Positions 1,986-15,083 of a DNA stretch of 24,000 nt are shown here, piece by piece. A model generated the notes under the pieces. It saw nothing but the letters and a program-made list of their open reading frames with translations. It searched no databases and was not told the DNA's origin. Source of the DNA: Sphingobacterium cavernae (lineage in GTDB: Bacteria > Bacteroidota > Bacteroidia > Sphingobacteriales > Sphingobacteriaceae). The number at the start of each line of letters is the position of its first letter. The first letter of the stretch is position 1. The translations under genes and the position numbers were made by a program. Location of the stretch: assembly GCF_008520265.1 (NCBI RefSeq), contig NZ_VIQM01000026.1, forward strand, positions 7,902-31,901, read 5' to 3'.

Positions 1986-2057
1986 GGCCCGTTCGTCTAG
2001 GGGTTAGGACGCCAGATTTTCATTCTGGAAACAGGGGTTCGATTCCCCTACGGGCTA
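1986..2057 (+). tRNA. tRNA-Glu, anticodon UUC
   Basis: Cloverleaf folded by hand. Acceptor stem is GGCCCGT/ACGGGCT (G1-U72 wobble plus 6 Watson-Crick pairs). D stem is GTCT/GGAC. Anticodon stem is CCAGA/TCTGG with loop TTTTCAT, giving anticodon TTC. T arm is AGGGG-TTCGATT-CCCCT. Discriminator is A and CCA is not encoded. Total length is 72 nt. Confidence 0.93.
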
Positions 2058-2058
2058 C
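2042..2058 (+). repeat. Left copy of a 17-bp direct repeat (attL-like), inside the tRNA-Glu 3' end
   Basis: ATTCCCCTACGGGCTAC at 2042-2058 is identical to 7877-7893. Confidence 0.85.
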
Positions 2059-2083
2059 AGATCTTCAGATCAAAACATACAAA

Positions 2084-2121
2084 AGCTTGCAAATCAAATG
2101 ATGGCAGGCTTTTTTTTTTTC
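2084..2121 (+). terminator. Hairpin plus T-run downstream of tRNA-Glu (islet-borne intrinsic terminator candidate)
   Basis: AGCTTGC (2084-2090) pairs with GCAGGCT (2104-2110), with one G-U pair and a 13-nt loop. An 11-T run follows at 2111-2121. Confidence 0.5.
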
Positions 2122-2129
2122 ATTATTTA

Positions 2130-2650
2130 CTATAACTTACTATCTTTAGGTCAGCAACAAAATCCTGTCGTGAATATAATCCATTGACTTTCAATCCTCG
2201 TTTTGCAAATTCATTAGAGGATTGAATTAAGAGATCCAATCGGTCATCAATAAAATAAAACTGGGTATTATCTGCTTTTTCTGATGGTAGTCAGTCAAAT
2301 ACTTGACATTGTAATATGCCAATGCTATTTTTCCCGCTCCCAGTGTATACCAGATAATGCCTTTCCTTCTACCTTCGTCTAGATTTGCAGTTATTGCCAT
2401 ATTAGCAAACACTTGCGGATAACGCAAATATGTTTTTAGTACTTTCCTCACGCACATAAGCTATATCATATCGTAGAATAAAACCTAAACCTTCTCTACT
2501 GAACAACGACGTAAATATCTTATGCGTAGGACTGTGAGGTTTCTTATTCATCTTGTTTTCTGGACTATGCTTTATAACTAACAGATTGTTATCCTTCAGC
2601 AAAAAGTTTTCCTGATCTTCTAAAGCTACATCAGGATTGTTCGTTGTATT
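2130..2650 (-). pseudogene. Decayed fragment of an SF2 helicase / restriction-enzyme R-subunit-like gene
   Basis: Three short reverse-strand reading frames join only through frameshifts and stops: ...LRYDIAYVREE / VLKTYLRYPQVFANMAITANLDEGRRKGIIWYTLGAGKIALAYY...FILLMTDWIS* / QSSNEFAKRGLKV... The patterns LRYPQ...G(I/L)IWxTxGxGK...(D)R..L resemble the motif Q / Walker A region of HsdR/Res-type helicases. The Walker A is degenerate (GAGKI) and the fragment covers only ~170 codons. Confidence 0.45.
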
Positions 2651-2795
2651 CTATCTAAAAATATAGATTCAAAGATATTACTATCCGATCATCTAATTTA
2701 CTCTCGTAAAGTAATATACGTATGCCCCAAACGCTTTAAATGTAATAGCGCTGGAATCTTTACACGTGAATTTTCGTTAAATGCCATTCTAAAAG

Positions 2796-3656
2796 TTAGA
2801 AGATTTGATTAAACAATATTTCTAGATCTGTTTTTACGGTGTCAAAAGTCGGTAATTTCTTAGGTGAAATCTGATGCCCGAGGCTAGTTTTCCAAGCTTT
2901 TTTCACAGTACTCTCACTCTTAGCATTAAGAAATTGTTCTACACCACAATATTCGAGTCCTTTAAATTCCATTTTTTTCAAAAAGGCCGTTTTTATTTCA
3001 GACCAATCAATATCTCCTCCGTATTTGGATAGACACCATATATCATAGTAATCCCGAGGAGCGGTGTAAGAACGTTGAATTAATGCACTCAGCTTTTCAG
3101 ACAATACCTCACGTATGTCATAACATGAGATAGCCGATACAGCAGAGGAAAGCTCGTCCGAATAATCATGATAGACTGGCTTGCCAATAGGTCTAAATAG
3201 CATTTGCTCATAGAGAATGATTTCTATTTTAATAGAAGTCGTCCACCTAGCAGGAGTAGGGGAAGCTTGGTCTTTAGCATGGTCCGCTCCCCAAAACTTT
3301 ACAATCGCCGCATATCCCGTCAACATATCTTTATGACGTAGCTCAGTTAACTTATCTAAATGAAGAGGCATCTCTGTCCTTTGCTGAACAGAAGTTATTA
3401 TTTCTTGCATCAACTGCTTAGCCAACTTAAACTCCGTATTTATAGAAGTAAAATCCAAGTCCTCTGAAAAACGGTAATCTGGGAAATAACACTTGCGCAA
3501 GCAAGTTCCTCCCTTAAAAATTAAAGAATCTCGACAAATCTTGTTTGAAAATATAGCATCTATAAAATGACCTAATACCCAATCTTTATCAATTGTACTT
3601 CTAGAAACGTCGTGTTCCAGCTCTTTTTTATCGACTTCCTTTTTCAGTATCATCAA
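2796..3656 (-). CDS. abiEii: AbiEii/AbiGii-family nucleotidyltransferase toxin (DUF1814 type)
   Basis: This is a 286-aa ORF. The hallmark motif FKGGTCLRKCYFPDYRFSEDLDFT (aa 47-70) matches the pol-beta-like NTase signature GG(T/S)xL...R.SxDLDF of AbiEii. Its start overlaps the upstream gene's stop (ATGATG/TGA at 3651-3656). Confidence 0.85.
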   Translation of the reverse strand: MMILKKEVDKKELEHDVSRSTIDKDWVLGHFIDAIFSNKICRDSLIFKGGTCLRKCYFPDYRFSEDLDFTSINTEFKLAKQLMQEIITSVQQRTEMPLHLDKLTELRHKDMLTGYAAIVKFWGADHAKDQASPTPARWTTSIKIEIILYEQMLFRPIGKPVYHDYSDELSSAVSAISCYDIREVLSEKLSALIQRSYTAPRDYYDIWCLSKYGGDIDWSEIKTAFLKKMEFKGLEYCGVEQFLNAKSESTVKKAWKTSLGHQISPKKLPTFDTVKTDLEILFNQIF

Positions 3657-4453
3657 TATTGTTTATTAGAGATATCTAACAATTCTCCACGACTGATATT
3701 CAATCGCAACCGCCATTCCGCGACAAACTCACCCTCTTCCAACCCCTGGGGATCAAACAAATTATATTTGTTATTTACTTGGCTTTTTGCATAGTCAATA
3801 AAAGTTTCTAAACCTTCTATACGGAGCAATTCAATTAGATATCCTAATCGCTTAGTGACAGCTATATTGTTCAACTGCTGACTATATTTAATTAATTTAT
3901 GAGCCTCCATTTCCGCTTGGCCAACCGCTCGGATCAACTCTGCGTATCCTCCCGAATATTGAGGCAGGTCAAAACAATCAACAATCGTTTTTTCCACATC
4001 AGTAATAGCATATTTAAGACTTCCATACCCATTGTAAGTAATACCTGCTTTTTTATACGAAGCAATTCTTACAAATTTATACGACGTGCCTAATATAGTT
4101 TTATCCAGTTTTTTGTGGGTTGTCTGAATAAAAACCGTATTCGAAAACTGTTCTGTCAATCCATGCAGATTCAATGCAGACCAGTACGCGACAGCACTGT
4201 TTTCCGTAACGAAGGTGCCTATCACGTATTCGTCCCTGAAATTTTGTCGACAAAACTTTCCTTTTTCTATCCGAGAGAGGAGTTCCTTATCAACCAGATT
4301 TTCCAATATCTCACTTAAGTTATCAAATGTTTGATCCAAAAGCTGTTCTATTTCAGTGAATTTAAAAATCTGTATTTCATAATCATCCAACAACTTTAAG
4401 AATTCAAGCTGTGGTTTAGTTAAGTGTTCCGATATATAAACGCTGTCTGCCAT
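3653..4453 (-). CDS. abiEi: AbiEi-family antitoxin / transcriptional regulator (COG5340-like)
   Basis: This 266-aa ORF lies immediately upstream of abiEii and is translationally coupled to it. AYWSALNLHGLTEQ resembles the conserved S-AL-LHGLT-Q block of AbiEi proteins. The size and operon position are canonical. Confidence 0.75.
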   Translation of the reverse strand: MADSVYISEHLTKPQLEFLKLLDDYEIQIFKFTEIEQLLDQTFDNLSEILENLVDKELLSRIEKGKFCRQNFRDEYVIGTFVTENSAVAYWSALNLHGLTEQFSNTVFIQTTHKKLDKTILGTSYKFVRIASYKKAGITYNGYGSLKYAITDVEKTIVDCFDLPQYSGGYAELIRAVGQAEMEAHKLIKYSQQLNNIAVTKRLGYLIELLRIEGLETFIDYAKSQVNNKYNLFDPQGLEEGEFVAEWRLRLNISRGELLDISNKQY

Positions 4454-4456
4454 ATT

Positions 4457-4511
4457 ACCAATTGAGGAACGATAAGACCCAATTATTAGGTCTTATCGTT
4501 CCGCGATTGGT
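4457..4511. promoter_or_regulatory. Extended inverted repeat abutting the abiEi start codon (candidate AbiEi operator / 5'-UTR hairpin)
   Basis: GGAACGATAAGACC (4466-4479) and GGTCTTATCGTTCC (4489-4502) form a perfect 14-bp inverted repeat around a 9-nt spacer. A second 6-bp pair, ACCAAT (4457-4462) / ATTGGT (4506-4511), flanks it. The repeat lies 4 nt from the abiEi ATG (4453), within the 196-bp divergent intergenic region. Confidence 0.5.
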
Positions 4512-4649
4512 AAAGATATGAAACGAAATAGATAAAAAACAAGCAAAGAATTGATATCCTAAATCAAATTGGAACATCATTAATTTCTACAAAAGTTAAT
4601 AACAATGGCACTCAATTTTATATCTTAACCCAGAATTGCATAATGCGTA

Positions 4650-7616
4650 ATGAATTACACACCAAATGACATAAAACTTATTCTTAGGCTCTTTAAAGGT
4701 CGCGAAGATGTGTTTGCTACTCGTTGGGAAAAGGCTGGTAAATCTGCCTATATGCCCGCCTATAGTTACGACCCGTATCATTATAGGTTGCATAAAGCAA
4801 ATGGAGGTACATTTAAAAGCTATCAACACAAGACATACTTGCCATTATCGGAGATAGAGATTGATAAACACTTAAGAGGAGATCAGCAGATTGGCATTTA
4901 TCCATTGCTACAGGATAATACTTCTTGGTTCATCGTAGCTGACTTTGACAAATCAGACTGGCAAGAACAAGCTGCAAAGTATTTGGAAGCTTGCACTAAT
5001 AAAAATATTCCCGCTTATCTTGAACGTTCTCGTTCAGGCAATGGAGCACATGTGTGGATATTCTTTGATCAGCCATATCCCGCCATTAAAAGTCGTAGGA
5101 TATTCCTTCGTATCTTAGAAAATTGTGGAGCTTTCTCTATGTTTGATAAGAGTTCTAGTTTTGACAGAATGTTTCCAAGCCAAGATTATCATTCAGGTGA
5201 AGGACTAGGGAATTTAATCGCACTACCTTTATATTTACCAGCGCTAATAAAAGGTAATAGTTGCTTTATCGATTCTGAAACATTAGAAGCATTTCCTGAC
5301 CAAGTCACCTACCTGAAAAACATCAACAAGGTCAATTTGGAATTACTGGACCGACTAGATAATGAAATTGATAGCGACGAGAATAACCCTAGCTCTTATA
5401 TTGATAAAAAACTTAAAATAACTCTAAATAACACAATTCGGTTAAATCGTTTCTCCATCCCATTTACTCTGATCAATTTTCTAAAAGAAAACCTGAACTT
5501 TGCAAATTCTGCTTTTATCATAAAGAAAAAAGCCGGTAGAAGCACGTTTGAAACACCTAGGTTCTATAATTTAATAGAAGAGAAGAAAAATGAACTTCAC
5601 ATCCCTAGAGGATTTATTGGGAGACTTTTGAGGTTCTGTAGAGATATAAAATTAGAGCATGAATTTGTGGATGAAAGAAAAGCACTTCCTGTTATCCCTT
5701 TTGTTTTTCAAGCGACATTAAGAAATCATCAAAATAACACAGTAGAGGCTGTTGCAAAAAAAGACTTTGGAATAATTGTCGCGCCACCTGGTGCAGGAAA
5801 AACCGTTATTGGATTAAAAATTATTGCAGACAAACAACAGCCAGCTCTTATCCTTGTACATCGTAAGCAACTTTTAGATCAATGGATAGAACGTATTGAG
5901 GGATTTTTAGTCATTCCTAAAAAAGACATAGGTATCATTGGTAAAGGAAAAGCTAAAATTGGCAATCATATTACAATAGCTACTATCCAGAGTCTCCCTA
6001 AATATATCGACACTTTACATGATAAGTTTGGAACAATTCTCATCGATGAATGTCATCACGTTCCTGCAGAATCATACCGTAATACCATTAATGCTCTACA
6101 AAGCAAGTATTGTTATGGACTTACAGCAACACCATTCAGGAAGCATAACGATGATAAGCTAATTTTTACATATCTCGGTGACATTATAACCGAAATCAAA
6201 TCTGAAGAAATTGAAGACTATAAAAAAGCAACAATAATTATTAGAAACACAACGCTTAATGTACCATACAATTCGAAAACAGACAATTTTGAGGTTCTTT
6301 CTCAAATACTAATCCATGATACAGCCAGAAACAATATCATAAGGGATGATGTAGCTAAGGAACTAAATCAAGGAAAGAAAGCTGTAATAATTACGGAGCG
6401 AAAAGAACATATCGAAACATTAAACCTGCTTCTAAAATCTAATTATGAAACCATAACACTCAGTGGCGACGATACAGACAGTAATAAGAAAGCAAAGTGG
6501 AAAACACTTTCAGAAGGGAATTTTCAAGTGTTAATTACTACAGGACAATACTTCGGTGAAGGCTCCGACATTAAGCATATTAACACACTTTTTTTAGCTT
6601 ATCCATTTTCATTTAAAGGGAAATTAATACAGTACATCGGCAGGGTACAAAGGTCCGAAATCAACCCAACGATATACGACTATCGGGACTTGCAGATTGA
6701 CTATCTTAATAAACAGTTTTTGAAACGAAACACATATTATCGTCAAATAGATAAACAAGTGACATTGTTTGATGAACCAACCTTAGATTACCAACCCAAT
6801 ACAGCAGACCTATTTATATTAGAAAAATCAGTCAAAATACCAATTGACAATCTTTCTTTTCATTATGGTCATGTGACATTTACCTATAAAGTTGATGAGA
6901 TGCACAGTATGTTAGAGTTTCAGATTGAAAACAAAGAAATGCGACCTGAATTTGATGTATTAAAAGCATATTTCAGCAAAAACTTAAAGTCAAAAAATAT
7001 AACTGTCGAAATTAAAGCAGAATTTGAGTACGGAAAACTAGTAGCACAAATAGCTACTTCTAAAGATATCGAACATATCAATAAAGAGATAGTAGAAGGG
7101 GTAAAATTCCAATTTCTCAATAAAGGTTTATTAGGGAGAAGCCCTTTTCAAAAGAAAGATATACTAACCGCAGAGCAATTACAGGAAGGACATAATATAT
7201 ATAAAAATGCAAAGGATATGATATCCGATATTCTTAAGCAACGACAATACAAACATTCCGATCAAATTCGTTTTTTAGCCGACCAGCATAGAACTGATAT
7301 TATGAAAATTCGCTTTGTGCTTAGTCCGTTTGCTTTTGTATTCCTTTTTTCAGGGAATAGACAATATCACATCATTCTAGAAACACTAGATACAGAAGAA
7401 GCAACATACATCTGGCATACAGATAAAAACAGATCTTCATTAATAGAAGCAATCGAAATCATTAACAAAGACCTTCAGGTTATTCGAGAAAAAGGCAGAC
7501 AAGTGTTTTTAGATGAATACATTCCTTCAAATTTTAGTCGAATACTACATGACTATACAGAACCAGAGAAAGGTTTCATATTATGGAAGAGCATGTTGGA
7601 AGAAGTCATTCACTGA
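4650..7616 (+). CDS. Fusion protein: N-terminal archaeo-eukaryotic primase (PrimPol-like) domain + SF2 DEAH-box helicase + uncharacterised C-terminal region
   Basis: This is a 988-aa ORF. AEP motifs are hhhADFD (aa 94-100), SGNGAHVWIFF (129-139) and FDRMFPSQD...GLGNLIALPL (171-194). Helicase motifs are LRNHQ (357-361), APPGAGKT (378-385), DECHH (466-470), TATP (492-495), VLITTGQYFGEGSDI (627-641) and QYIGRVQR (661-668). I recognise no motifs in aa ~700-988. Confidence 0.85.
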   Translation: MNYTPNDIKLILRLFKGREDVFATRWEKAGKSAYMPAYSYDPYHYRLHKANGGTFKSYQHKTYLPLSEIEIDKHLRGDQQIGIYPLLQDNTSWFIVADFDKSDWQEQAAKYLEACTNKNIPAYLERSRSGNGAHVWIFFDQPYPAIKSRRIFLRILENCGAFSMFDKSSSFDRMFPSQDYHSGEGLGNLIALPLYLPALIKGNSCFIDSETLEAFPDQVTYLKNINKVNLELLDRLDNEIDSDENNPSSYIDKKLKITLNNTIRLNRFSIPFTLINFLKENLNFANSAFIIKKKAGRSTFETPRFYNLIEEKKNELHIPRGFIGRLLRFCRDIKLEHEFVDERKALPVIPFVFQATLRNHQNNTVEAVAKKDFGIIVAPPGAGKTVIGLKIIADKQQPALILVHRKQLLDQWIERIEGFLVIPKKDIGIIGKGKAKIGNHITIATIQSLPKYIDTLHDKFGTILIDECHHVPAESYRNTINALQSKYCYGLTATPFRKHNDDKLIFTYLGDIITEIKSEEIEDYKKATIIIRNTTLNVPYNSKTDNFEVLSQILIHDTARNNIIRDDVAKELNQGKKAVIITERKEHIETLNLLLKSNYETITLSGDDTDSNKKAKWKTLSEGNFQVLITTGQYFGEGSDIKHINTLFLAYPFSFKGKLIQYIGRVQRSEINPTIYDYRDLQIDYLNKQFLKRNTYYRQIDKQVTLFDEPTLDYQPNTADLFILEKSVKIPIDNLSFHYGHVTFTYKVDEMHSMLEFQIENKEMRPEFDVLKAYFSKNLKSKNITVEIKAEFEYGKLVAQIATSKDIEHINKEIVEGVKFQFLNKGLLGRSPFQKKDILTAEQLQEGHNIYKNAKDMISDILKQRQYKHSDQIRFLADQHRTDIMKIRFVLSPFAFVFLFSGNRQYHIILETLDTEEATYIWHTDKNRSSLIEAIEIINKDLQVIREKGRQVFLDEYIPSNFSRILHDYTEPEKGFILWKSMLEEVIH
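4692..5294 (+). other. AEP / PrimPol-like domain of the 988-aa protein
   Basis: The three classical AEP motifs (DxD, sGxGxH, hD...) appear in the correct order and spacing, at nt 4938-4949, 5034-5057 and 5160-5177. Confidence 0.7.
5712..6665 (+). other. SF2 (DEAH, Res/XPB-like) helicase core of the 988-aa protein
   Basis: Walker A is at nt 5781-5804, DECH at 6045-6056 and motif VI at 6630-6653. This gives two RecA-like lobes. Confidence 0.85.
6747..7613 (+). other. C-terminal ~290-aa region of unknown function
   Basis: aa 700-988 are Lys/Glu/Ile-rich with a hydrophobic block, RFVLSPFAFVFLFSGNRQYHIILETLD. I found no nuclease, NTPase or Zn-finger signature by eye. Confidence 0.4.
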
Positions 7617-7876
7617 GAGACAAGCTTAAAATTACAGTCAACACCGTATAATACTCATGAGTATATAAATTCCTCAATCATGTAACACAAACCTTACTTT
7701 CTCCAATTATTTACTCAAAAACAAATATTACAATTAGATAATATTAAGAAAAATCACTAAATTTATCAAATAGCAATTGCGGCTAAAATGTATATCAAAC
7801 AAGTGAGATATTCAGTATGTCTGAAAAAATAAGGTTTGTAAATCACTGATAAAGAGATTGATGTTCGGCAGGTGTT

Positions 7877-7893
7877 ATTCCCCTACGGGCTAC
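7877..7893 (+). repeat. Right copy of the 17-bp direct repeat (attR-like; displaced tRNA-Glu 3' end)
   Basis: ATTCCCCTACGGGCTAC is identical to 2042-2058. Flanking bases also partly match (GGT..ATT). Confidence 0.85.
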
Positions 7894-7894
7894 G

Positions 7895-7926
7895 AAAAGC
7901 GACTACAAAAGAGTCGCTTTTTTATT
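7895..7926. terminator. Bidirectional intrinsic terminator (probable original tRNA-Glu terminator; also ends the convergent hydrolase gene)
   Basis: AAAAGCGACT (7895-7904) pairs with AGTCGCTTTT (7912-7921) around a 7-nt loop. The T-run continues on the + strand, and an A-run/T-run is present on the - strand. Confidence 0.7.
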
Positions 7927-8671
7927 TTAAGACCTCATCCAAAAACAATATTAAATGATTCCAAGCGCGTTTTGCCATTGTAGGGTTATAATCATTTGAT
8001 GCAGGATTTGTAAAAGTATGACCGCTATTTGCGTAAGTTATGATTTGGTAATCTGCTTTCCCCTCTTTTAATTCTTTTTCTAGATTGTCGTAATCAGCCT
8101 TACTAACAGATTTGTCTTCAGCTGGATGCTGAACCAACACCCTCGTCTTAATTGTACCATTTATTCTATCTGATCCTTTCGACAAACCTCCATGAATACT
8201 CACAGCACCTAGGACATCAAAATTTGCTCTCGCTACCTCTAGTGCTCCTGTCCCTCCAAAACAATATCCGATTACAGCAATTTTTTCAGGATCAACCCCT
8301 TTCTCAATAAATGTTTGTAATGCTAATTTAATACGATGTTGGTAAGCTTTGTAATCTGACTTATACATCCCAGCTAGTTTACCTGCTGCAGCGTTGTCTT
8401 GCGGCACATTTCCCTCGCCATAGATATCAGCAATAAAAACATTGTAGCCAATTTTATGCAATTCTACCGCAGCGTCTTTGGCCTCTTGATCAATTCCCTT
8501 CCATGCTGGCAAAATAAGAACACCGGGCTGCAAATTACCTTTGGTCGAGGTAATAACCAAACCTTTAAGTATTTGTGTGTTATCCTTGTAAATTACTTCT
8601 TTTAGTTCTTGGCTAAAGGAATTGCTAACACAAAGTAAGCATAGTAATACTGCAATTAGATTATTTTTCAT
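7922..8671 (-). CDS. Dienelactone hydrolase family protein, secreted
   Basis: This is a 249-aa ORF. It has an N-terminal signal peptide (MKNNLIAVLLCLLCVSNSFSQ), the nucleophile motif IGYCFGG and a C-terminal GHTF histidine motif. Confidence 0.85.
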   Translation of the reverse strand: MKNNLIAVLLCLLCVSNSFSQELKEVIYKDNTQILKGLVITSTKGNLQPGVLILPAWKGIDQEAKDAAVELHKIGYNVFIADIYGEGNVPQDNAAAGKLAGMYKSDYKAYQHRIKLALQTFIEKGVDPEKIAVIGYCFGGTGALEVARANFDVLGAVSIHGGLSKGSDRINGTIKTRVLVQHPAEDKSVSKADYDNLEKELKEGKADYQIITYANSGHTFTNPASNDYNPTMAKRAWNHLILFLDEVLK

Positions 8672-8747: not shown

Positions 8748-11432
8748 TTACTTGCTTGTTTTTGAAAAATTAAATACTGCTTTTAAAACGGCCATTCTAC
8801 CACGTAGTTCATAGCTGTTTTGAGATTGCATATTAGCATTGATGTTATAAGTATTGAATCTCTTGTTATTTCCAATATTGGATATACGAAGCTCAAAATC
8901 TGTTTTCCATTTCTTATGCGCGTAACGCATAAAGGAGTCCATGAAAAAGTAATTTATATCTTGTAATGCTTGTTGATGGCTATATAAATGTCGACCACTA
9001 ACCTGGATATGAAATTTCTTGTATAAAGTCAACGGAAAACTCAGATTTTGAGAAATGCCAAATGTTTTTTGATCTAGATCCATATCTGAATGCATTTGTT
9101 CTGTCTTCGTCCAATTCATATTTCCACTGTAGGAAAGATTTAACTTCTTCCATAGTCTAGTTTCAATTTTTGGACTTAAAGAATAAGTTGTATTTAAAAA
9201 TGGCAACAACTCGTCATTGAATATTTGATTGTAATCAGTCCAGTTTACAGAGGATCCTATTTTTAATGATGTTGCCCATTTGAAAATATATTTATCAAAA
9301 CCCGCATTTACACCATAACTATTTATCGCATTCTCTTGTTCTATTAGCACAATCTGCGAGTTGTCTACATCAATCCTATTCGAAATCATCGTTGAAGAAA
9401 CTGATTTATTATAATTCAATCCCAGATTGTAGAAAAGAAGCTTCACCGCTTTACCGGATTTATAATTCAAAGTAAAATTGTTGTGTATAGATTCATTAAT
9501 TCCTGCGGTATTGTTTGCAATCATCCGGTAATTTCGTACGATATATCCACGATAAACATTCTCTATATTGCCAAAAGTATTGCCTCGCTGAAAATTAAAT
9601 GATAGTTCATTTTGTGCATCAAAATTGTATCTACTTGAAAAAGCTGGCTCAAACATTATCTTATTCAAATTTTCTTTGAGCTGAAACAGCGGATCATTGT
9701 ACGATGTATGTTGAAATGCTAATGGCAAAACAAGTTGAGACGACAATTTTCGATGTTTATAATCATACGTCGCTAGTGCAGCTACAGAAGACCGCGACCA
9801 CTCCATATCATTTTGCGTAGATATTGCAGTTAATGGTATTAGACTATTGCCATCTTCTAGGGAAATATCGGAATTTAAATTTTGCTTGTCCGCGGTAATA
9901 TTTACACTATAATACTGCGAAATTCTACCTTTTGGAAGCCTATAGCCAACACTCATATTTGTCAACCAAGAAGGAACTTCTACGTGCTGATTAATCTTAT
10001 CATAAGGAGAATCCTCATTCAATAAGTCAACATATACTCCTGGCGTAATACCTAATATTTGTGGTTTAGAACCGTAATTAAAATACCAGCCAAATTGAAT
10101 GATATCGCCATTTTTCAATGCGGGTACATAATCCAATTTATTCTTAAATCCTTTTATTAAATAATCGCGGTTAAGTTCGAATGATGAGTTATTTGAAAAT
10201 ATAGAAGCATTAGCATGTGCGTTTTCAATTTCCCACGCAAATTCATTATTGAAATAATACTTCTCAATATTTTTAGCGAAGCTAGCGTTGAATGAACCCA
10301 CCCATTCTTTTTCCAAAGCATGTTGTTTCTCGTCAAAACTTATATCTCCACCCTCTGTAAAATAGGTTGTTTTTCCAAAAAATTCCTTCGAACTTTTATC
10401 CAATACCCCCTGTATGTTAATTGTCAACGTCCAATCTTTCTTGAATTTGTAAAGATTGTTCGCGTTAAATCCTACTGAATTATTCATTAAATAATGCGCT
10501 CTTTGGATCGGTGGATTTCCTACCGTGCCTAAATCCAATAGGTTATTAATTGGTGTTCGTCCTAATCGCGATAATAGCGAAGATGAATTAAACCCAATTA
10601 AATCTCCCTTCAGCTCATTTCCAATATTATTTCCTTGTAATACATTTAGACCTTTATATTTCTTATTGAACATCACACTATTCAATTCCATGTCATATTG
10701 CTTTGGAAGTCCTATACCAATCTTCGCTTGCCCAGACACAGAAATTTTGGCTTCATCTTTAGTCACCAAATTCAATGCAACATCATCGCTGTACCTTCTA
10801 TTTTTTAGTACTTTCATATGCTCATGATTGCTAATCATCTCCACATCTTGAATTAGTTTGTGTCCTATAGTCTTTGTGCCTATTCGATATTTGTCCTTCA
10901 ACAGATCATCCCCATCCAAATAAAAATTTGATATAGCCTTACCTTGATATTTTATTTGTCCAGACTCAGACACTTCAATTCCTGGCATTCGCTTTAGCAC
11001 GTCGCCTATAGATCGATCTTCATCTTGCGCAAATGAAGACACATTATAAGCTAGAGTGTCTCCAACTTGCTGTATCCTTGGCTTGCTTTTTACTTCTACA
11101 TCTTCTAATAAAATTGTACTCTCTTCAAGTTCAATAATCTGTGTTTGCCCTTTATTGATAAGGTCATGTCGCTTCTTTTTATAACCTAAGTGATTAATCT
11201 CAAGGTAGATTCCTTCTATTTGTTTAGAAGTTTGAAGTACAAACTCTCCTTCTTTATTCGTTGACTTAAAAGTAATTATTTTGTTTTCATAACTTTTCAA
11301 TAAAACTGTAATTGCTTGTAAGCTTTTTTTGGTTTCGTAGTCAATAACTTTGCCTGAAATCTCAGTAACTTGCGCGATGCCGTGTATGCATACGAATGTG
11401 CAAAAGAAGAGTAATAACAGTATTTGACGCAT
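8748..11432 (-). CDS. Outer-membrane beta-barrel protein with CarboxypepD_reg-like and TonB-dependent-receptor plug-like N-terminal domains
   Basis: This is an 894-aa ORF with a signal peptide. GKVIDYETKKSLQAITVLLK is a carboxypeptidase-regulatory-like fold. DTLAYNVSSF...DRSIGDVLKRMPGIEV...GQIKYQGKAISNFYLDGDDLL is plug-like. A long Asn/Tyr/Ser-rich barrel region ends in an aromatic residue pattern. Confidence 0.8.
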   Translation of the reverse strand: MRQILLLLFFCTFVCIHGIAQVTEISGKVIDYETKKSLQAITVLLKSYENKIITFKSTNKEGEFVLQTSKQIEGIYLEINHLGYKKKRHDLINKGQTQIIELEESTILLEDVEVKSKPRIQQVGDTLAYNVSSFAQDEDRSIGDVLKRMPGIEVSESGQIKYQGKAISNFYLDGDDLLKDKYRIGTKTIGHKLIQDVEMISNHEHMKVLKNRRYSDDVALNLVTKDEAKISVSGQAKIGIGLPKQYDMELNSVMFNKKYKGLNVLQGNNIGNELKGDLIGFNSSSLLSRLGRTPINNLLDLGTVGNPPIQRAHYLMNNSVGFNANNLYKFKKDWTLTINIQGVLDKSSKEFFGKTTYFTEGGDISFDEKQHALEKEWVGSFNASFAKNIEKYYFNNEFAWEIENAHANASIFSNNSSFELNRDYLIKGFKNKLDYVPALKNGDIIQFGWYFNYGSKPQILGITPGVYVDLLNEDSPYDKINQHVEVPSWLTNMSVGYRLPKGRISQYYSVNITADKQNLNSDISLEDGNSLIPLTAISTQNDMEWSRSSVAALATYDYKHRKLSSQLVLPLAFQHTSYNDPLFQLKENLNKIMFEPAFSSRYNFDAQNELSFNFQRGNTFGNIENVYRGYIVRNYRMIANNTAGINESIHNNFTLNYKSGKAVKLLFYNLGLNYNKSVSSTMISNRIDVDNSQIVLIEQENAINSYGVNAGFDKYIFKWATSLKIGSSVNWTDYNQIFNDELLPFLNTTYSLSPKIETRLWKKLNLSYSGNMNWTKTEQMHSDMDLDQKTFGISQNLSFPLTLYKKFHIQVSGRHLYSHQQALQDINYFFMDSFMRYAHKKWKTDFELRISNIGNNKRFNTYNINANMQSQNSYELRGRMAVLKAVFNFSKTSK

Positions 11433-11437
11433 ACAAA

Positions 11438-12328
11438 CTAAGGAATCAGTTCTATAGGATTATTAGTAATCTGTGAAGGCTTATAGTTCTCTTCATTATT
11501 GATTGAAATAGATTTAATCCGAGATGGATCCATAACTCCTCCAGCCGCACTTCCGCTAGATGAAGACTTCACAACCACACCATTACCTGATGAAATCATT
11601 TTACTATTATTCGCTTGTCTGGACTCAATGTATGCAGATGGATTATTTCTAAATGCTTTATCCAACTTTTCTACTTCCTCCTTTGTCGCAGAAATCGCTT
11701 TTTCAGAAGGTTGAATTTTTAAAGGAGTATCGCCTTCGATTTTTTCAAAACCATCGAATTCAAACATAACTTCTTGTTTCGTATCTGCTGCTGATAATAT
11801 TAATCCAGGCAATCCATGCAATTTCCATGGTCCAAAAGGCATAGGTATCTCCGTTGTAAACCAAGCTTCATAAGTTCTTCCTTTAAACTTTGTTGTAGCT
11901 TTCTGACAAGTGTATCCGCCTATTACTTTTGAGTCTTCAAAAATCTCCCAGTCCAATACTGGAAAGTTTTCTTTTAAAAGATATTCATCTGATGCTACAC
12001 GATATACTTCCTGCAATTCATTTTTAGCTAAATCTAACACATAAGATGATTTTATCGTTGATGTGTTTTTACTAAGGACGATATTTCCGTCAAAAGAAGG
12101 GTTACTCATTTGCTCCTTTAGCTTTTCATTGACTTTGTCACTAGATACACTCGTATAAAGACTAGTCTTTACACCTAAATATGTACCAACATTATCACGC
12201 AAGAATTTATCACGCTGCGCGGTATCATTCATATGTTTAAAAACATAATAGATTTTTGCGATAGGTGTTTCTTGTGCTATTGATTGTAAGCAAAACACCA
12301 ATAAAAACGATAGAATTGAAAGTCTCAT
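11438..12328 (-). CDS. GLPGLI family protein
   Basis: This is a 296-aa ORF with a signal peptide and the eponymous motif [11 protein letters not shown]. It lies 5 nt upstream of the OMP gene on the same strand. Confidence 0.85.
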   Translation of the reverse strand: [296 protein letters not shown]

Positions 12329-12375
12329 AATATATTAATTTACGATTTTTTAGTAATACTACGGTTTTTTAGTAA

Positions 12376-13146
12376 CTAACGCAAATTTTTTCTTCCTTTC
12401 AATTCTTTGGGGTTATTAGTTTCAAAAGAAGGCTTATAATCGTCATCGGTCCTTAAATCGAAATGATGCTTTGAATAATCAATTCCCATTAAATCATTAC
12501 CGATCTCCATTCTTCCAGAATTTTGTAAGGATTGAAAATAGGTGCCTTGATCTTCATTAAAGGCTTTTCTTATCTTCTCAATTTCAGATGGATTAGACTT
12601 TATCACGTAAAATGGAATTTCTACCCGAGAATCATCATCAAGTTTTTCAAAACCATGATATTCGAATTTTACTTCTCTTTTATCATCATATGCTTCTAAT
12701 ATAAGTCCTGGTAAGCCATGAAGTTTCCAAGGTCCGAAAGGAAATGGTAACTCTGTTGTAAACCAAGCTTCATACGTTCTTCCTTTGAATTGTGTTATGG
12801 CTTTCTGACAGGTGTAACCACCAATTTCTTTTGTTTCTTCTAAAATTTTCCAGTTTTATTCCACTAAAGGCACTTTATAAGTAAATGCATCAAAGGTTGA
12901 TGATATAGTTACCACCTTATCCACCTCTTTACTCTCTTTATGAATCAACTAGAATTCATTAATTGCTGTGGTAGTGAACTTGAGAACTATATGCCCTGTA
13001 AAATCCGCTAAAACTTTTTGTGCAGCTATGTCTTTTTGAATAATAACATTACTATACGTTGTATAATAAGAAGAATTATTACTTAAGTAAGTAACTACTT
13101 TATCTCGTAACGGTTGATCTATGTGATTTGAATCGTTGATGTGGTG
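12376..13146 (-). pseudogene. GLPGLI family paralogue, inactivated (two in-frame stops, 5' end abutting the IS element)
   Basis: A single reverse frame reads ...VVHHINDSNHIDQPLRDKVVTYL...INEF*LIHKESKEV...[63 protein letters not shown]...NNPKELKGRKNLR*. The stops are TAG at 12949-12951 and TAA at 12856-12858. The sequence is colinear with the 11438-12328 protein. Confidence 0.8.
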
Positions 13147-13330
13147 AACTACCCATTTGCTAAAGACAAATGGGCTTCGGGCTTCACAGACTTGTGCTTT
13201 GTTGCCAAAGTCTTATTTGAGTCTCCGCCCGTGTAATCGCCAGTTCCTGACGATATTATTTTTAATCCTTCTTTCAGAATGTTTTTTGCAGCGTTTAAAT
13301 CACGGTCTAAAACGTGTCCATTTTTGCAAG
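13125..13330 (-). ncRNA. Predicted TnpB omega-RNA (reRNA) scaffold plus flanking guide; extent approximate
   Basis: By analogy with characterised TnpB systems, the guide RNA derives from the tnpB 3' end plus the right end and reads into the flank. The right-end hairpin is present. No covariance model was run. Confidence 0.4.
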
Positions 13331-14342
13331 TCCATTCTCTTATTGAAAGATTTAAGTCTTGATTTATCCAACCGCACTCACAGCAGGTTTTACTTGATGG
13401 ATAGAAGCGATTGATTTTTACAATCTGTTTATCGTTCCAATCAGCCTTGTATTCAAGCAACCTAACGAAAGTTCCCCAACTTGCATCAGAAATATGTTTT
13501 GAAAGTTTATGGTTTTTCACCATACCTTTCACATTCAAATCTTCTAATGCAATTATATCGTAGTTAGAAACTAATTGGTGCGATACCTTATGTAAGTTAT
13601 CCATTCGTGAGTTGGTTATCTTCTGGTGAAGTCTTGCTGTTTTTCGTCTTTGTCTTTCAAACGAATTACTGCCTTTTGTCTTACGAGAAAGATGTTTTTG
13701 TGCTTTCGCTAATTCTTTTTCATATTGTTTTGTGTATTTGTTGTTCTTGAATTTGACACCATCAGAAGTAATAGCAAAGTCTTTTAAACCTAAATCTATT
13801 CCACAAAAAGCACCAGTCTTTTCTTTTACTTGATATTCTTCTTCTGATAGTATTGATACAAAATATTTTCCTGTTGGTGTTTTACTCAAAGTACATTTAC
13901 TAATTTCGCCTTTAACTTCACGATGAACATTAACTTTAATACCTTCTTTGAATTTTGGTGCAAAAAATCTACCACCTTCAAGTTTTGCGAACTGTGGAAC
14001 TGTGAATGAGTTTTTCTTTTTCCTTGACTTAAATCGTGGAAACTTAGCATTACCTCTAAAAAAATTCACGTAAGCAGTATCTAAACATCTTAAAACAAAT
14101 TGTAATGATTGACTATTCACTTCTTTCAGCCAAGCAGTTTCCTCTTTCTTTTTTAGTGCAGTTAAGGTAGCTGCCTGTTTATAGTAATTATCAGACTTTT
14201 TATTTGCTTGATATTGCTCTTTCTTTTCATTTAAAAAGTAGTTGTAAACGTAACGGATACATCCAAAATGCTTATCCAACAACACTTTTTGCTCTTGTGT
14301 TGGCTGCAATTCAAATTGATATGTCCGAAAAATTATCTTCAT
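13149..14342 (-). CDS. tnpB: RNA-guided endonuclease TnpB (IS200/IS605 OrfB family)
   Basis: The ORF is 13149-14372. I prefer the ATG at 14342 (MKIIFRTYQFELQPT is a typical OrfB N-terminus). RuvC-I is GIDLGLKDFA and RuvC-II is IALEDLNVKGM. The Zn finger is CCECGW...CKNGH, and RuvC-III is DRDLNAAKNI. Confidence 0.9.
   Translation of the reverse strand: MKIIFRTYQFELQPTQEQKVLLDKHFGCIRYVYNYFLNEKKEQYQANKKSDNYYKQAATLTALKKKEETAWLKEVNSQSLQFVLRCLDTAYVNFFRGNAKFPRFKSRKKKNSFTVPQFAKLEGGRFFAPKFKEGIKVNVHREVKGEISKCTLSKTPTGKYFVSILSEEEYQVKEKTGAFCGIDLGLKDFAITSDGVKFKNNKYTKQYEKELAKAQKHLSRKTKGSNSFERQRRKTARLHQKITNSRMDNLHKVSHQLVSNYDIIALEDLNVKGMVKNHKLSKHISDASWGTFVRLLEYKADWNDKQIVKINRFYPSSKTCCECGWINQDLNLSIREWTCKNGHVLDRDLNAAKNILKEGLKIISSGTGDYTGGDSNKTLATKHKSVKPEAHLSLANG
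13152..13174 (-). repeat. IS right-end (tnpB-proximal) subterminal hairpin
   Basis: CCCATTTG-CTAAAGA-CAAATGGG on the + strand forms a perfect 8-bp stem. It overlaps the last tnpB codons (stop at 13149-13151). Confidence 0.75.
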
Positions 14343-14458
14343 TCTACTATTAAATAGTTTTATTTTATGCAAAAAAACATTTTATTTATGCAGTCCGATG
14401 CGTTTTTTGTAAATATCTCCATTTTCATTGAGAAACATTCACAAAAAACTTCGCTAAT

Positions 14459-14962
14459 ATGTCTAAAAAATGTAATTACATCAGCACAAATCGTTCAAAA
14501 CACTACTTAAAGTGTCATTTAATCTTCGTTTGCAAGTATCGTAAAAAGTTACTTGTAGGTCAGTTAAAAGATGATATGCGTTCTCTCTTAAACATTACTT
14601 CTAATTCAGATTTTCAAATTGAAGTGTTTGAATCTGATTTAGAACACATCCATTTTCTTATTCGTTATATCCCCCGTGTTTCAATTACTTCTATTGTTCG
14701 CAAGTTAAAACAAGAATCTACTTATTACATTTCCCGTTCACCACACAGGTCATTCTTATTTAAACATTTTTGGAAAGAACATACTTTCTGGTATGATGGT
14801 TATTTTGTTTGTTCAATAGGTGAAGCATCTCCTGATACTATTCGTGAGTATATTCTCAATCAGGGTGAGTCGCTTACATCCAACAGGCTAAAGACCTGTG
14901 GGTTTTACGCTCCGTTTTATAAAATTTTTACAAATGATGCTTTTATTGAAGCATATCCATAA
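14459..14962 (+). CDS. tnpA: IS200/IS605 family Y1 (HUH) transposase TnpA
   Basis: This is a 167-aa ORF. The HUH motif is HIHFLI and the catalytic Tyr context is IREYILNQ. The C-terminal ~30 codons read through the left-end hairpin, so the tail may be non-native. Confidence 0.85.
   Translation: MSKKCNYISTNRSKHYLKCHLIFVCKYRKKLLVGQLKDDMRSLLNITSNSDFQIEVFESDLEHIHFLIRYIPRVSITSIVRKLKQESTYYISRSPHRSFLFKHFWKEHTFWYDGYFVCSIGEASPDTIREYILNQGESLTSNRLKTCGFYAPFYKIFTNDAFIEAYP
14880..14902 (-). repeat. IS left-end (tnpA-proximal) subterminal hairpin
   Basis: CCAACAGG-CTAAAGA-CCTGTGGG pairs at 7 of 8 positions. It has the same 7-nt loop and the same orientation as the 13152-13174 hairpin. Confidence 0.7.
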
Positions 14963-15083
14963 TATAACGATTCATGAAAGGAATTATTTTATCAAACTAC
15001 TAAATTTTAGTAATAATACGATTATTCAGTAGGTAACATCAATTTTATAGTTATGCAAAATACCAGAGGAAAATATTATCCTA

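Follow-up and report, generated by a model that had tools for sequence, protein, structure and literature searches.

The locus described here raises the question of whether the DNA lying between a tRNA-Glu(UUC) gene and a second copy of the 3′ end of this gene, in a 24-kb stretch of Sphingobacterium DNA (the window, the whole stretch that was analysed), is an integrated element and, if so, whether this element can still move. The analyses indicated that the 5.8 kb between the two copies (2059-7876) are the decayed remnant of an integrative element at tRNA-Glu(UUC), a reading to which a probability of about 0.8 was assigned. Integrase-less defence islets at tRNA hotspots are common and well understood, and the biology of this one is of the expected kind.

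Duplication of the tRNA-Glu 3′ end and the empty site

The host of the window is a Sphingobacterium whose PurD protein has 99% amino acid identity to that of S. bovisgrunnientis KCTC 52685 (locus L001; other loci are numbered likewise), and the DNA flanks of the window are 95-97% identical to those of L001. The purD gene was utilized as an anchor, by which 80 syntenic loci were fetched, and a purD-adjacent tRNA-Glu was seen in 60+ Sphingobacterium loci. The features that delimit the islet, with the attachment (att) sites named according to the integration described below, are as follows.

613-1887, + strand, purD (phosphoribosylamine-glycine ligase), conserved left flank (Pfam GARS_N/A/C)
1986-2058, + strand, tRNA-Glu(UUC), intact, integration target and attB side of attL (ARAGORN)
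2042-2058, + strand, attL core, copy 1 of the 17-bp direct repeat (exact match to ATTCCCCTACGGGCTAC)
7877-7893, + strand, attR core, copy 2 of the 17-bp direct repeat (exact match to ATTCCCCTACGGGCTAC)
7894-7926, + strand, ancestral tRNA-Glu terminator, overlapping the stop codon of the convergent hydrolase gene (terminator scan; −12.7 kcal/mol)
7922-8671, − strand, dienelactone hydrolase family gene, conserved right flank (Pfam DLH, E = 1e-38)

The perfect 17-bp direct repeat of the original prediction was confirmed: ATTCCCCTACGGGCTAC, the 3′ end of tRNA-Glu, recurs at the distal boundary with 17 of 17 nt identical, and these are the only two copies in 24 kb even when up to 2 mismatches are allowed. 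A chance or dispersed repeat was rejected on these grounds and because none was expected by chance (100 shuffles). The sequence immediately upstream of the attR core, GGCAGGTGTT, is the right arm of the element and not a tRNA T-arm. ARAGORN detected tRNA-Glu(UUC) as the sole tRNA of the window and placed all 17 nt inside the gene, such that the split into 16 nt of tRNA plus 1 nt given previously did not hold, a trivial difference.

Empty sites were sought in close relatives. The hydrolase protein was present, identical, on 13 public contigs, of which 10 were read, all being 99.3-99.8% identical in DNA to the right flank of the window. The conspecific empty site reads AAACAGGGGTTCG-ATTCCCCTACGGGCTAC-GAAAAGCGAC..., followed by the hydrolase gene; at least six conspecific contigs (L081 and L085-L089) continue from the hydrolase gene, by way of the 7894-7926 terminator, into ...GTAGCCCGTAGGGGAAT-CGAACCCCTGTTT, which is the tRNA T-arm and not the right arm of the islet. 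The conspecific Logan contigs end inside the multicopy tRNA, and a span from purD through the tRNA to the hydrolase gene was not obtained in the same species. Scanning of metagenome contigs for T-arm, core and terminator produced four matches, one of them L096, a sister lineage in which purD (97% nucleotide identity to the window), tRNA-Glu and a terminator of the 7894-7926 type are contiguous and in which an extra segment follows the terminator, as in L001. Among species-representative genomes with purD-tRNA-Glu synteny, 14 other Sphingobacterium species likewise have the terminator GAAAAGCGACTTCAAAAGAGTCGC plus T run, slightly varied, immediately behind the tRNA. As this terminator directly follows the tRNA in the empty sites, the hairpin and T run behind the second repeat (hairpin at 7894-7922; −12.7 kcal/mol, z −5.1) are ancestral. 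The claims that the distal repeat precedes the original tRNA terminator and that an empty site joins tRNA-Glu to this terminator and the hydrolase gene were, therefore, borne out, the former in conspecifics, L096 and the 14 species and the latter in the conspecific contigs.

The original prediction had also held, by eye, that the islet was more AT-rich than its flanks, and this was not supported. The GC content of the islet was 34.5% versus 35.7% for the flanks, and 43% of 5.8-kb flank windows were as AT-rich or more so; values for GC at third codon positions overlapped between islet and flanks, while the tetranucleotide distance of the islet was slightly higher. Atypical composition, a frequent but not obligatory feature of tRNA islands, was thus not detected. 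This result does not refute integration, because the element family circulates in the same low-GC genus.

Variants of the arrangement around the tRNA and its terminator were also noted. Tandem purD-adjacent tRNA-Glu genes were detected by ARAGORN in L005 (three copies, 10141-10741) and L004 (two copies), and the tRNA 3′ end is present twice in L007 and in L055; the ancestral terminator lies behind each copy in L005 and L055 and behind the first copy only in L007. The last 30 nt of the conspecific contig L084 form another junction at the terminator, ...TTCGGGTTC-GGCTAC-GAAAAGCGAC, with 6 nt of the core only, which may be another insertion or an assembly chimera. In L001, a 2.2-kb segment (10950-13180) separates the attR terminator of the islet from the hydrolase gene and has at its borders two copies of a 25-bp stretch of the terminator, AGCGACTTCAAAAGAGTCGCTTTTT (10924-10948 and 13181-13205). 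The 372-aa open reading frame (ORF) of this segment had no Pfam or NCBIfam match, and the first 80 nt of the segment are also found behind the terminator in the empty-site contig L096.

Left arm, element-borne terminator and integrases of related elements

The tRNA is followed in the window by a short conserved segment.

2059-2134, + strand, truncated left arm, including a terminator that belongs to the element (hairpin 2081-2113 with T run 2110-2120); 21 other loci have this segment, conserved, behind the tRNA

In these 21 loci a close relative of 2059-2134 lies behind the tRNA, with the form ...RTCAAAACATAC-AAAAGCYTGCAAA...TTTGCAGRC-T run. Analysis of 23 left ends with RNAalifold produced a 14-pair hairpin with almost no broken pairs and with compensatory changes at 5 pairs, one of which occurs as GC (13 sequences), CG (9) and UA (1). 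This conserved and covarying hairpin indicated that the elements supply their own terminator for the interrupted tRNA. Both of the hairpin-plus-T-run structures originally predicted downstream of the repeats are, by terminator scan and folding energies, real. The proximal one had been described as different and weaker; it is, however, not the weaker of the two, with −16.8 kcal/mol (z −4.0) versus −12.7 kcal/mol, and it is conserved, covarying and carried by the element.

Intact relatives continue beyond this terminator with GTGAGTCATTCGGTGAGTCA...ACTCAC motifs and, ~240 nt downstream of the tRNA, a + strand integrase gene encoding 405 to 444 aa. The products are tyrosine recombinases with Arm-DNA-bind_5, Phage_int_SAM_5 and Phage_integrase domains (Pfam). 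The integrase is intact in eight of the 21 loci (L004, second copy; L022, L024, L027, L029, L032, L053 and L059) and truncated in L002, L003, L004 (first copy), L012 and L031, while the left end only is present in several others (L001, L025, L028, L037, L041, L043 and L060). L004 contains a degenerate and an intact element, each beside one of its two tRNA-Glu copies. In the window, ~76 nt of left arm are retained, and the GTGAGTCATTCGGTGAGTCA repeats and the integrase, which in the eight loci lies inside the element at the same position beside the att site, are absent. The predicted lack of a recombinase ORF between the repeats was upheld by an ORF and domain survey, in which the coding capacity was fully taken by an hsdR remnant, abiEii, abiEi and a gene for a 988-aa protein, and by tblastn with seven integrases of related elements, which detected nothing better than E = 0.03 in the 24-kb window.

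A second, unrelated left end (CGAGAGGCTCCAAAGAG...ATTCAAAA...) occupies ~+1 to +60 after the same tRNA in six species (L030, L033, L044, L051, L054 and L061) and is followed in L051 by a different tyrosine integrase of 456 aa. At least two element families, therefore, use the same attB. The purD-adjacent tRNA-Glu is a genus-wide integration hotspot in Sphingobacterium, and its content differs between strains and species.

Right arm and putative arm-type sites

The distal end of the islet is also shared with related elements.

7617-7876, + strand, right arm, with the putative arm-type motif GTGAGATATTCAGTATGT at 7803-7820 (86% identity to L001)

The right arm is 86% identical to the right end of the L001 islet, compared with ~73% for the gene-bearing interior. 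Blocks of this arm (CAATTGC, GTGAGnnATTCnnTGAGT, TGTAAA and CTGATAAAG) are also found in L106, L047, L059 and L042, where they lie upstream of a second core that is in some cases degenerate. L059, at 3.2 kb, is a small but complete element, comprising an integrase and a RhuM/Fic gene in addition to the right arm and a core that has degenerated. Both arms of the islet are, hence, ends common to integrase-bearing family members; together with the empty sites, the presence of these relatives at the same tRNA bore out the original proposal of site-specific integration at the 3′ end of tRNA-Glu.

The GTGAG...TGAGT motif of the right arm resembles the left-arm repeats and, given the arm-binding domain of the integrases, these motifs are putative arm-type sites. 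The copy in the window has 2 mismatches to the family motif, both in the second half-site, while those of L001 and L106 are perfect. In L106, which carries an 89%-identical copy of the islet, identity of attR to the tRNA reaches 23-24 nt (5313-5336; GGTTCGATTCCCCTACGGGCTAC); the identity core, therefore, varies between family members.

Cargo genes and decay of the restriction-modification module

The interior of the islet contains the following features.

2135-2787, − strand, type I restriction hsdR pseudogene: aa 1-50 at 2787-2638, aa 51-220 deleted, aa 221-384 frameshifted at 2620-2135, rest deleted (tblastn with the 1022-aa HsdR of L094; Pfam ResIII/SWI2_SNF2, N-terminal)
2796-3656, − strand, abiEii (nucleotidyltransferase toxin), full length (Pfam PF08843, E = 2.5e-35; PADLOC AbiEii, E = 6.3e-91)
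3653-4453, − strand, abiEi (antitoxin and transcriptional autorepressor), full length, 266 aa (PADLOC AbiEi, E = 4.7e-94)
4455-4513, no strand assigned, palindrome with 29-nt arms in the divergent promoter region (repeat search, 90% complementary; −36.4 kcal/mol, z −9.9)
4650-7616, + strand, gene for an intact 988-aa protein with an AEP primase-polymerase, an XPB/Rad25-like superfamily 2 (SF2) helicase and a C-terminal region of ~280 aa (Pfam AEP-TOTE, E = 2e-81; ResIII; Helicase_C)

The cargo was compared with loci in which it is more complete. In L094 (an NCBI Sphingobacterium assembly) and L099, the primase-helicase (87% amino acid identity), abiEi and abiEii are followed by a type I restriction-modification (R-M) system in which HsdR (1022 aa) and then HsdM are intact; L094 also has an intact HsdS, and the contig of L099 ends within this gene. 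No intact hsdR-hsdM-hsdS set is present in the window, from which hsdM and hsdS are absent. As the hsdR match of the window ends at ~aa 384 and the similarity of its left arm to L001 and the family ends at 2121-2138, it follows that a single deletion joined the left arm at ~+76 to hsdR codon ~384. Based on the order of L094 and L099, where hsdM and hsdS lie beyond hsdR, this deletion probably also took hsdS, hsdM and two thirds of hsdR; the comparison thus indicates that the integrase and what else there was of the R-M system were lost in one and the same deletion. The frameshifted helicase remnant beside the tRNA had been recognized as such in the original prediction, where it was regarded as standing in the place of an integrase; the frameshifts are present, but the remnant is the N-terminal part of HsdR and belongs to the cargo.

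The hsdR gene is truncated differently in other islets with this cargo. In L001 an ISL3 transposase fragment truncates it at aa 270, and in L106 ~94 nt of its 5′ end are left. Throughout the L001-, L106- and L094-type relatives and the window, abiEi (266 aa), abiEii (285/286 aa) and the primase-helicase gene (988/989 aa) are full length. The differing truncations indicated that decay was independent in at least two lineages, with the cargo genes staying full length. In L001, the truncated hsdR is abutted at 4540-5000 by the fragment of the ISL3-family transposase and GGATCATGTACAAA repeats, and decay of this islet was probably mediated by the insertion sequence (IS). A 38-nt stretch with the GGATCATGTACAAA repeat, 97% identical, was also observed after the terminator in L096 (4588-4625).

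The abiEi and abiEii genes overlap at 3653-3656 and lie adjacent in one operon, as in AbiE, a type IV toxin-antitoxin and abortive-infection system (PMC3985639). The length of abiEii matches that of its homologues, and AbiEi has 266 aa in all relatives. The closest copies of this cargo are those of L093 (94% nucleotide identity), whose right-hand context differs, and L106 (89%), which has the same right arm and a 23-nt core; no record of the exact AbiEi protein of the window was found elsewhere. The 4455-4513 palindrome is conserved in L093, L094 and L106 and, as AbiEi binds inverted repeats of its own promoter (PMC7319586), is a candidate AbiEi operator. AbiE stabilises an integrative and conjugative element (ICE) in Streptococcus suis (PMC11062541), and by analogy the pair of the window probably also stabilises the islet as an addiction module. 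The overlapping bicistronic organization, the strong profile matches and the long promoter palindrome are shared with AbiE systems; the window differs in that the primase-helicase gene is transcribed divergently from the same promoter region.

The primase-polymerase/XPB-like helicase

The 988-aa protein belongs to a very large and unusually conserved family. A homologue search scored 7,986 of 8,000 candidates at E ≤ 1e-10, and the 120 matches listed had 983 to 1010 aa and at least 63% identity and included several Bacteroidota lineages, the best of those listed being 96% identical. Residues 6-242 matched PDB entries 7nqd/7nqf by sequence (deposited as "TPR_REGION domain-containing protein"), and residues 332-522 matched the archaeal XPBII of 6p4f. 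For the C-terminal ~280 aa, no Pfam family was detected, and the predicted model, which contains two beta4-alpha units, had no significant fold match in the PDB.

The N-terminal AEP-TOTE match is a feature in common with TOTE conflict systems (TPR, OB, TBP, Effector), and below-cutoff matches of the AEP part to NCBIfam (type A1) and PADLOC models of CRISPR-associated primase-polymerases, together with the sequence match to 7nqd/7nqf, are a likeness to the latter group. In contrast to both, neither TPR-OB or TBP partners nor CRISPR-Cas genes are encoded nearby in the window, and the AEP domain is fused to an XPB-like helicase and the C-terminal region; TPR, OB and TBP domains were detected neither in the 988-aa protein nor in its neighbours.

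Homologue contexts (including loci L101, L102, L104 and L105) were examined. A homologue is the last gene of a helix-turn-helix-methylase-methylase-OLD/AAA-UvrD operon in two distant genomes, Alkalitalea and Arachidicoccus, and others have AAA_13 or Schlafen-like genes as neighbours; the 10 kb displayed to each side contain no integrase. Location in such integrase-free defence contexts argues for a role in defence rather than in element replication. No functional study of this conserved gene was found in the literature searched. It might be speculated, against rather long odds, that AbiE and the primase-polymerase/XPB-helicase form a minimal defence cassette moved in trans between strains by tRNA-Glu integrases and that the 988-aa protein is the effector of an uncharacterised anti-phage system which plugs into varied sensor or restriction modules.

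Proposed history and alternative explanations

These observations are consistent with the following history. An integrase of the Bacteroidota type (Arm-DNA-bind_5, SAM_5 and a tyrosine recombinase catalytic domain) would have recombined the 17-bp attP core, within a junction that would read ...GGCAGGTGTT-ATTCCCCTACGGGCTAC-AGATCTTCAG..., with the 3′ end of tRNA-Glu. Judging from the anatomy of the locus, the tRNA would have been completed by element DNA and would now be ended by the element-borne terminator, with the cargo in the middle and the right arm, second core and original tRNA terminator at the far end. Comparison with relatives shows that one deletion later joined the left arm at ~+76 to hsdR codon ~384, by which the integrase, the repeat motifs of the left arm and all else in between were lost, and that a further deletion, of ~500 bp, together with frameshifts, completed the inactivation of hsdR. 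The AbiEi/AbiEii pair and the divergent primase-polymerase/XPB-like helicase gene have survived intact, and the islet may now work as a fixed anti-phage defence locus.

Several points weigh against decay in place of an element that has become immobile. The window covers 24 kb of the genome, and a cognate integrase elsewhere is possible; both 17-bp cores are perfect and the right arm is well kept, such that recombination in trans is possible; and composition yields no independent sign of foreign origin. Furthermore, the islet is missing from strains whose flanks are 99.5% identical, yet it shows at least three decay events, which fits decay in place awkwardly and hints that the islet arrived already decayed. 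Had the islet come in with flanking chromosomal DNA of a different Sphingobacterium strain, by homologous recombination and not by site-specific integration in the present lineage, its identity would be unchanged but its history another. Such an origin would account for the large deletion, the 500-bp deletion and the frameshifts in the face of conspecific empty sites at 99.3-99.8% flank identity, and for the contrast between flanks with 95-97% identity to those of L001 and an interior with only ~73% identity to the islet there. Close to the tRNA on its upstream side, in the 3′ end of purD and the tRNA promoter region (1860-1949), there are also 7 single nucleotide polymorphisms (SNPs) that are private to the window relative to L091, L092, L096 and L001, versus ~7 in the preceding 1.5 kb, and this cluster may be an imported recombination patch. 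The cluster is, however, small and could be local variation; the right flank has no matching cluster, its first SNP being at 8240; and no donor was found, with no record of the exact AbiEi and a best primase-helicase match, among those listed, of 96%. Import in a decayed state was considered to be possible although the less likely history.

A different account is that the islet is still mobile, as a cis-mobilizable element (CIME) or one mobilizable in trans. Its excision and integration would then depend on an integrase specific for tRNA-Glu whose gene lies at another place in the genome, or on a related element that enters the cell, perhaps following accretion in tandem. The 17/17 cores, a right arm more conserved than the cargo (86% versus ~73%) and presence or absence of the islet among strains with 99.5% identical flanks speak for such movement, as do the related integrase-bearing elements that target the same core in many congeners, the pairing of a degenerate with an intact element at the two tRNA-Glu copies of L004, and the integrase-less islets with the same cargo and independent decay in L001 and probably L106. 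Ancestral empty sites, however, explain the polymorphism equally well. Moreover, the left-arm motifs (GTGAGTCATTCGGTGAGTCA...ACTCAC) of every intact relative are deleted in the window, 2 mismatches fall in the second half-site of the lone right-arm motif, which L001 and L106 carry in perfect form, the 24 kb contain no integrase, and neither an attP-type nor an attL-type junction was found in the viral collection. Continuing mobility was judged to be improbable, and of the two outcomes offered by the original prediction, a fossilised element or one mobilised in trans, the former fits better, since the deleted left-arm motifs and the mutated right-arm motif argue against the latter.

The remaining explanations concern the nature of the islet itself. 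Other species have tRNA-Glu sequences in tandem at this locus (L005, L004, L007 and L055), and the second 17-mer could be the leftover of a tandem gene whose 5′ part was deleted. The sequence upstream of this copy, …GATAAAGAGATTGATGTTCGGCAGGTGTT, is, however, the conserved right arm of L001, L106, L047, L059 and L042, the first copy is followed by the conserved left arm that in relatives leads into the integrase, and the empty sites have a single tRNA followed by the terminator; this explanation is scarcely credible and was rejected because what lies 5′ of the second copy belongs to the right arm of the element. Fusions of primase and helicase typically serve phage satellites and integrative plasmids as replication genes, and the AEP domain of the 988-aa protein would suit a replicase of such a replicon. 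Its helicase is, however, an SF2 enzyme of the XPB type and not SF3, and its homologues are chromosomal, ending R-M or OLD-UvrD operons or adjoining AAA_13 and Schlafen-like genes in integrase-free surroundings (10 kb on either side). The islet contains no packaging, regulatory or mobilisation genes, and of the features of satellites resembling phage-inducible chromosomal islands it has the primase-helicase only, whose homologues lie in non-mobile defence operons. A prophage, plasmid or satellite origin was rejected, the islet DNA having no match in phage or plasmid collections and the left-end pattern being absent from viral contigs, and a satellite or replicative integrative plasmid is very improbable.

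Relationship to known elements

CIMEs, described in Streptococcus, are decayed ICEs or integrative and mobilizable elements that retain attL and attR and have lost their integration and transfer genes (PMC5704250). The decayed integrative element of the window fits a CIME-like remnant with a truncated attL: it is flanked by direct repeats resulting from integration at a tRNA 3′ end, contains neither integrase nor transfer genes, and shares its site with integrase-bearing relatives, including the degenerate and intact elements at adjacent tRNA-Glu copies in L004. Both cores are perfect, the left arm is cut before the repeat motifs and the right-arm motif has 2 mismatches. The islet differs from CIMEs in that its left arm of ~76 nt has no repeat motifs, such that attL may not function, and in its Bacteroidota host.

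Among Bacteroidota, NBU1 at tRNA-Leu is a tRNA-targeting element with an IntN1/IntDOT-like tyrosine integrase. The relatives of the islet resemble NBU1-type elements in their Arm-DNA-bind_5, SAM_5 and catalytic domains, in a short core corresponding to the tRNA 3′ end and in the position of the integrase next to att. This likeness is one of architecture; in contrast to NBU1-type elements, mob and oriT genes were found neither in the window nor in the small relative L059, and the copy in the window has no integrase. As in defence islands at tRNA hotspots, the cargo is entirely of the defence type (AbiE, type I R-M remnant and primase-helicase) and the content of the hotspot varies, but the islet is very small (5.8 kb) and its boundaries are exactly defined by att cores and conserved arms.

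With its exact att cores, element-supplied tRNA terminator, mapped deletion junction and matching empty sites, the locus provides a clean and fully bounded case of what is probably the decay of a tRNA-integrating element into a fixed defence locus. It matters chiefly for annotation and for comparison; the lead of greatest use is the conserved primase-polymerase/XPB-helicase gene that recurs in Bacteroidota defence islands.

A second strain-level indel in the window

Comparison with the conspecific contigs also detected a difference to the right of the hydrolase gene, in a region containing an IS200/IS605-family element (13149-14962).

13149-14372, − strand, tnpB, 407 aa, with OrfB_IS605 and Cas12f1-like TNB domains
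14459-14962, + strand, Y1 transposase gene tnpA, 167 aa

A 6-kb segment, 9024-15049, is absent from L081 and L083-L087, in which 9023 is joined directly to 15050, and is carried by L082 as far as the contig end at window position 13172. The segment holds most of a gene for an 894-aa CarboxypepD_reg-like outer-membrane protein, a 296-aa Porph_ging gene and the IS200/IS605 element, and thus represents a second strain-level indel, ending beside the IS.

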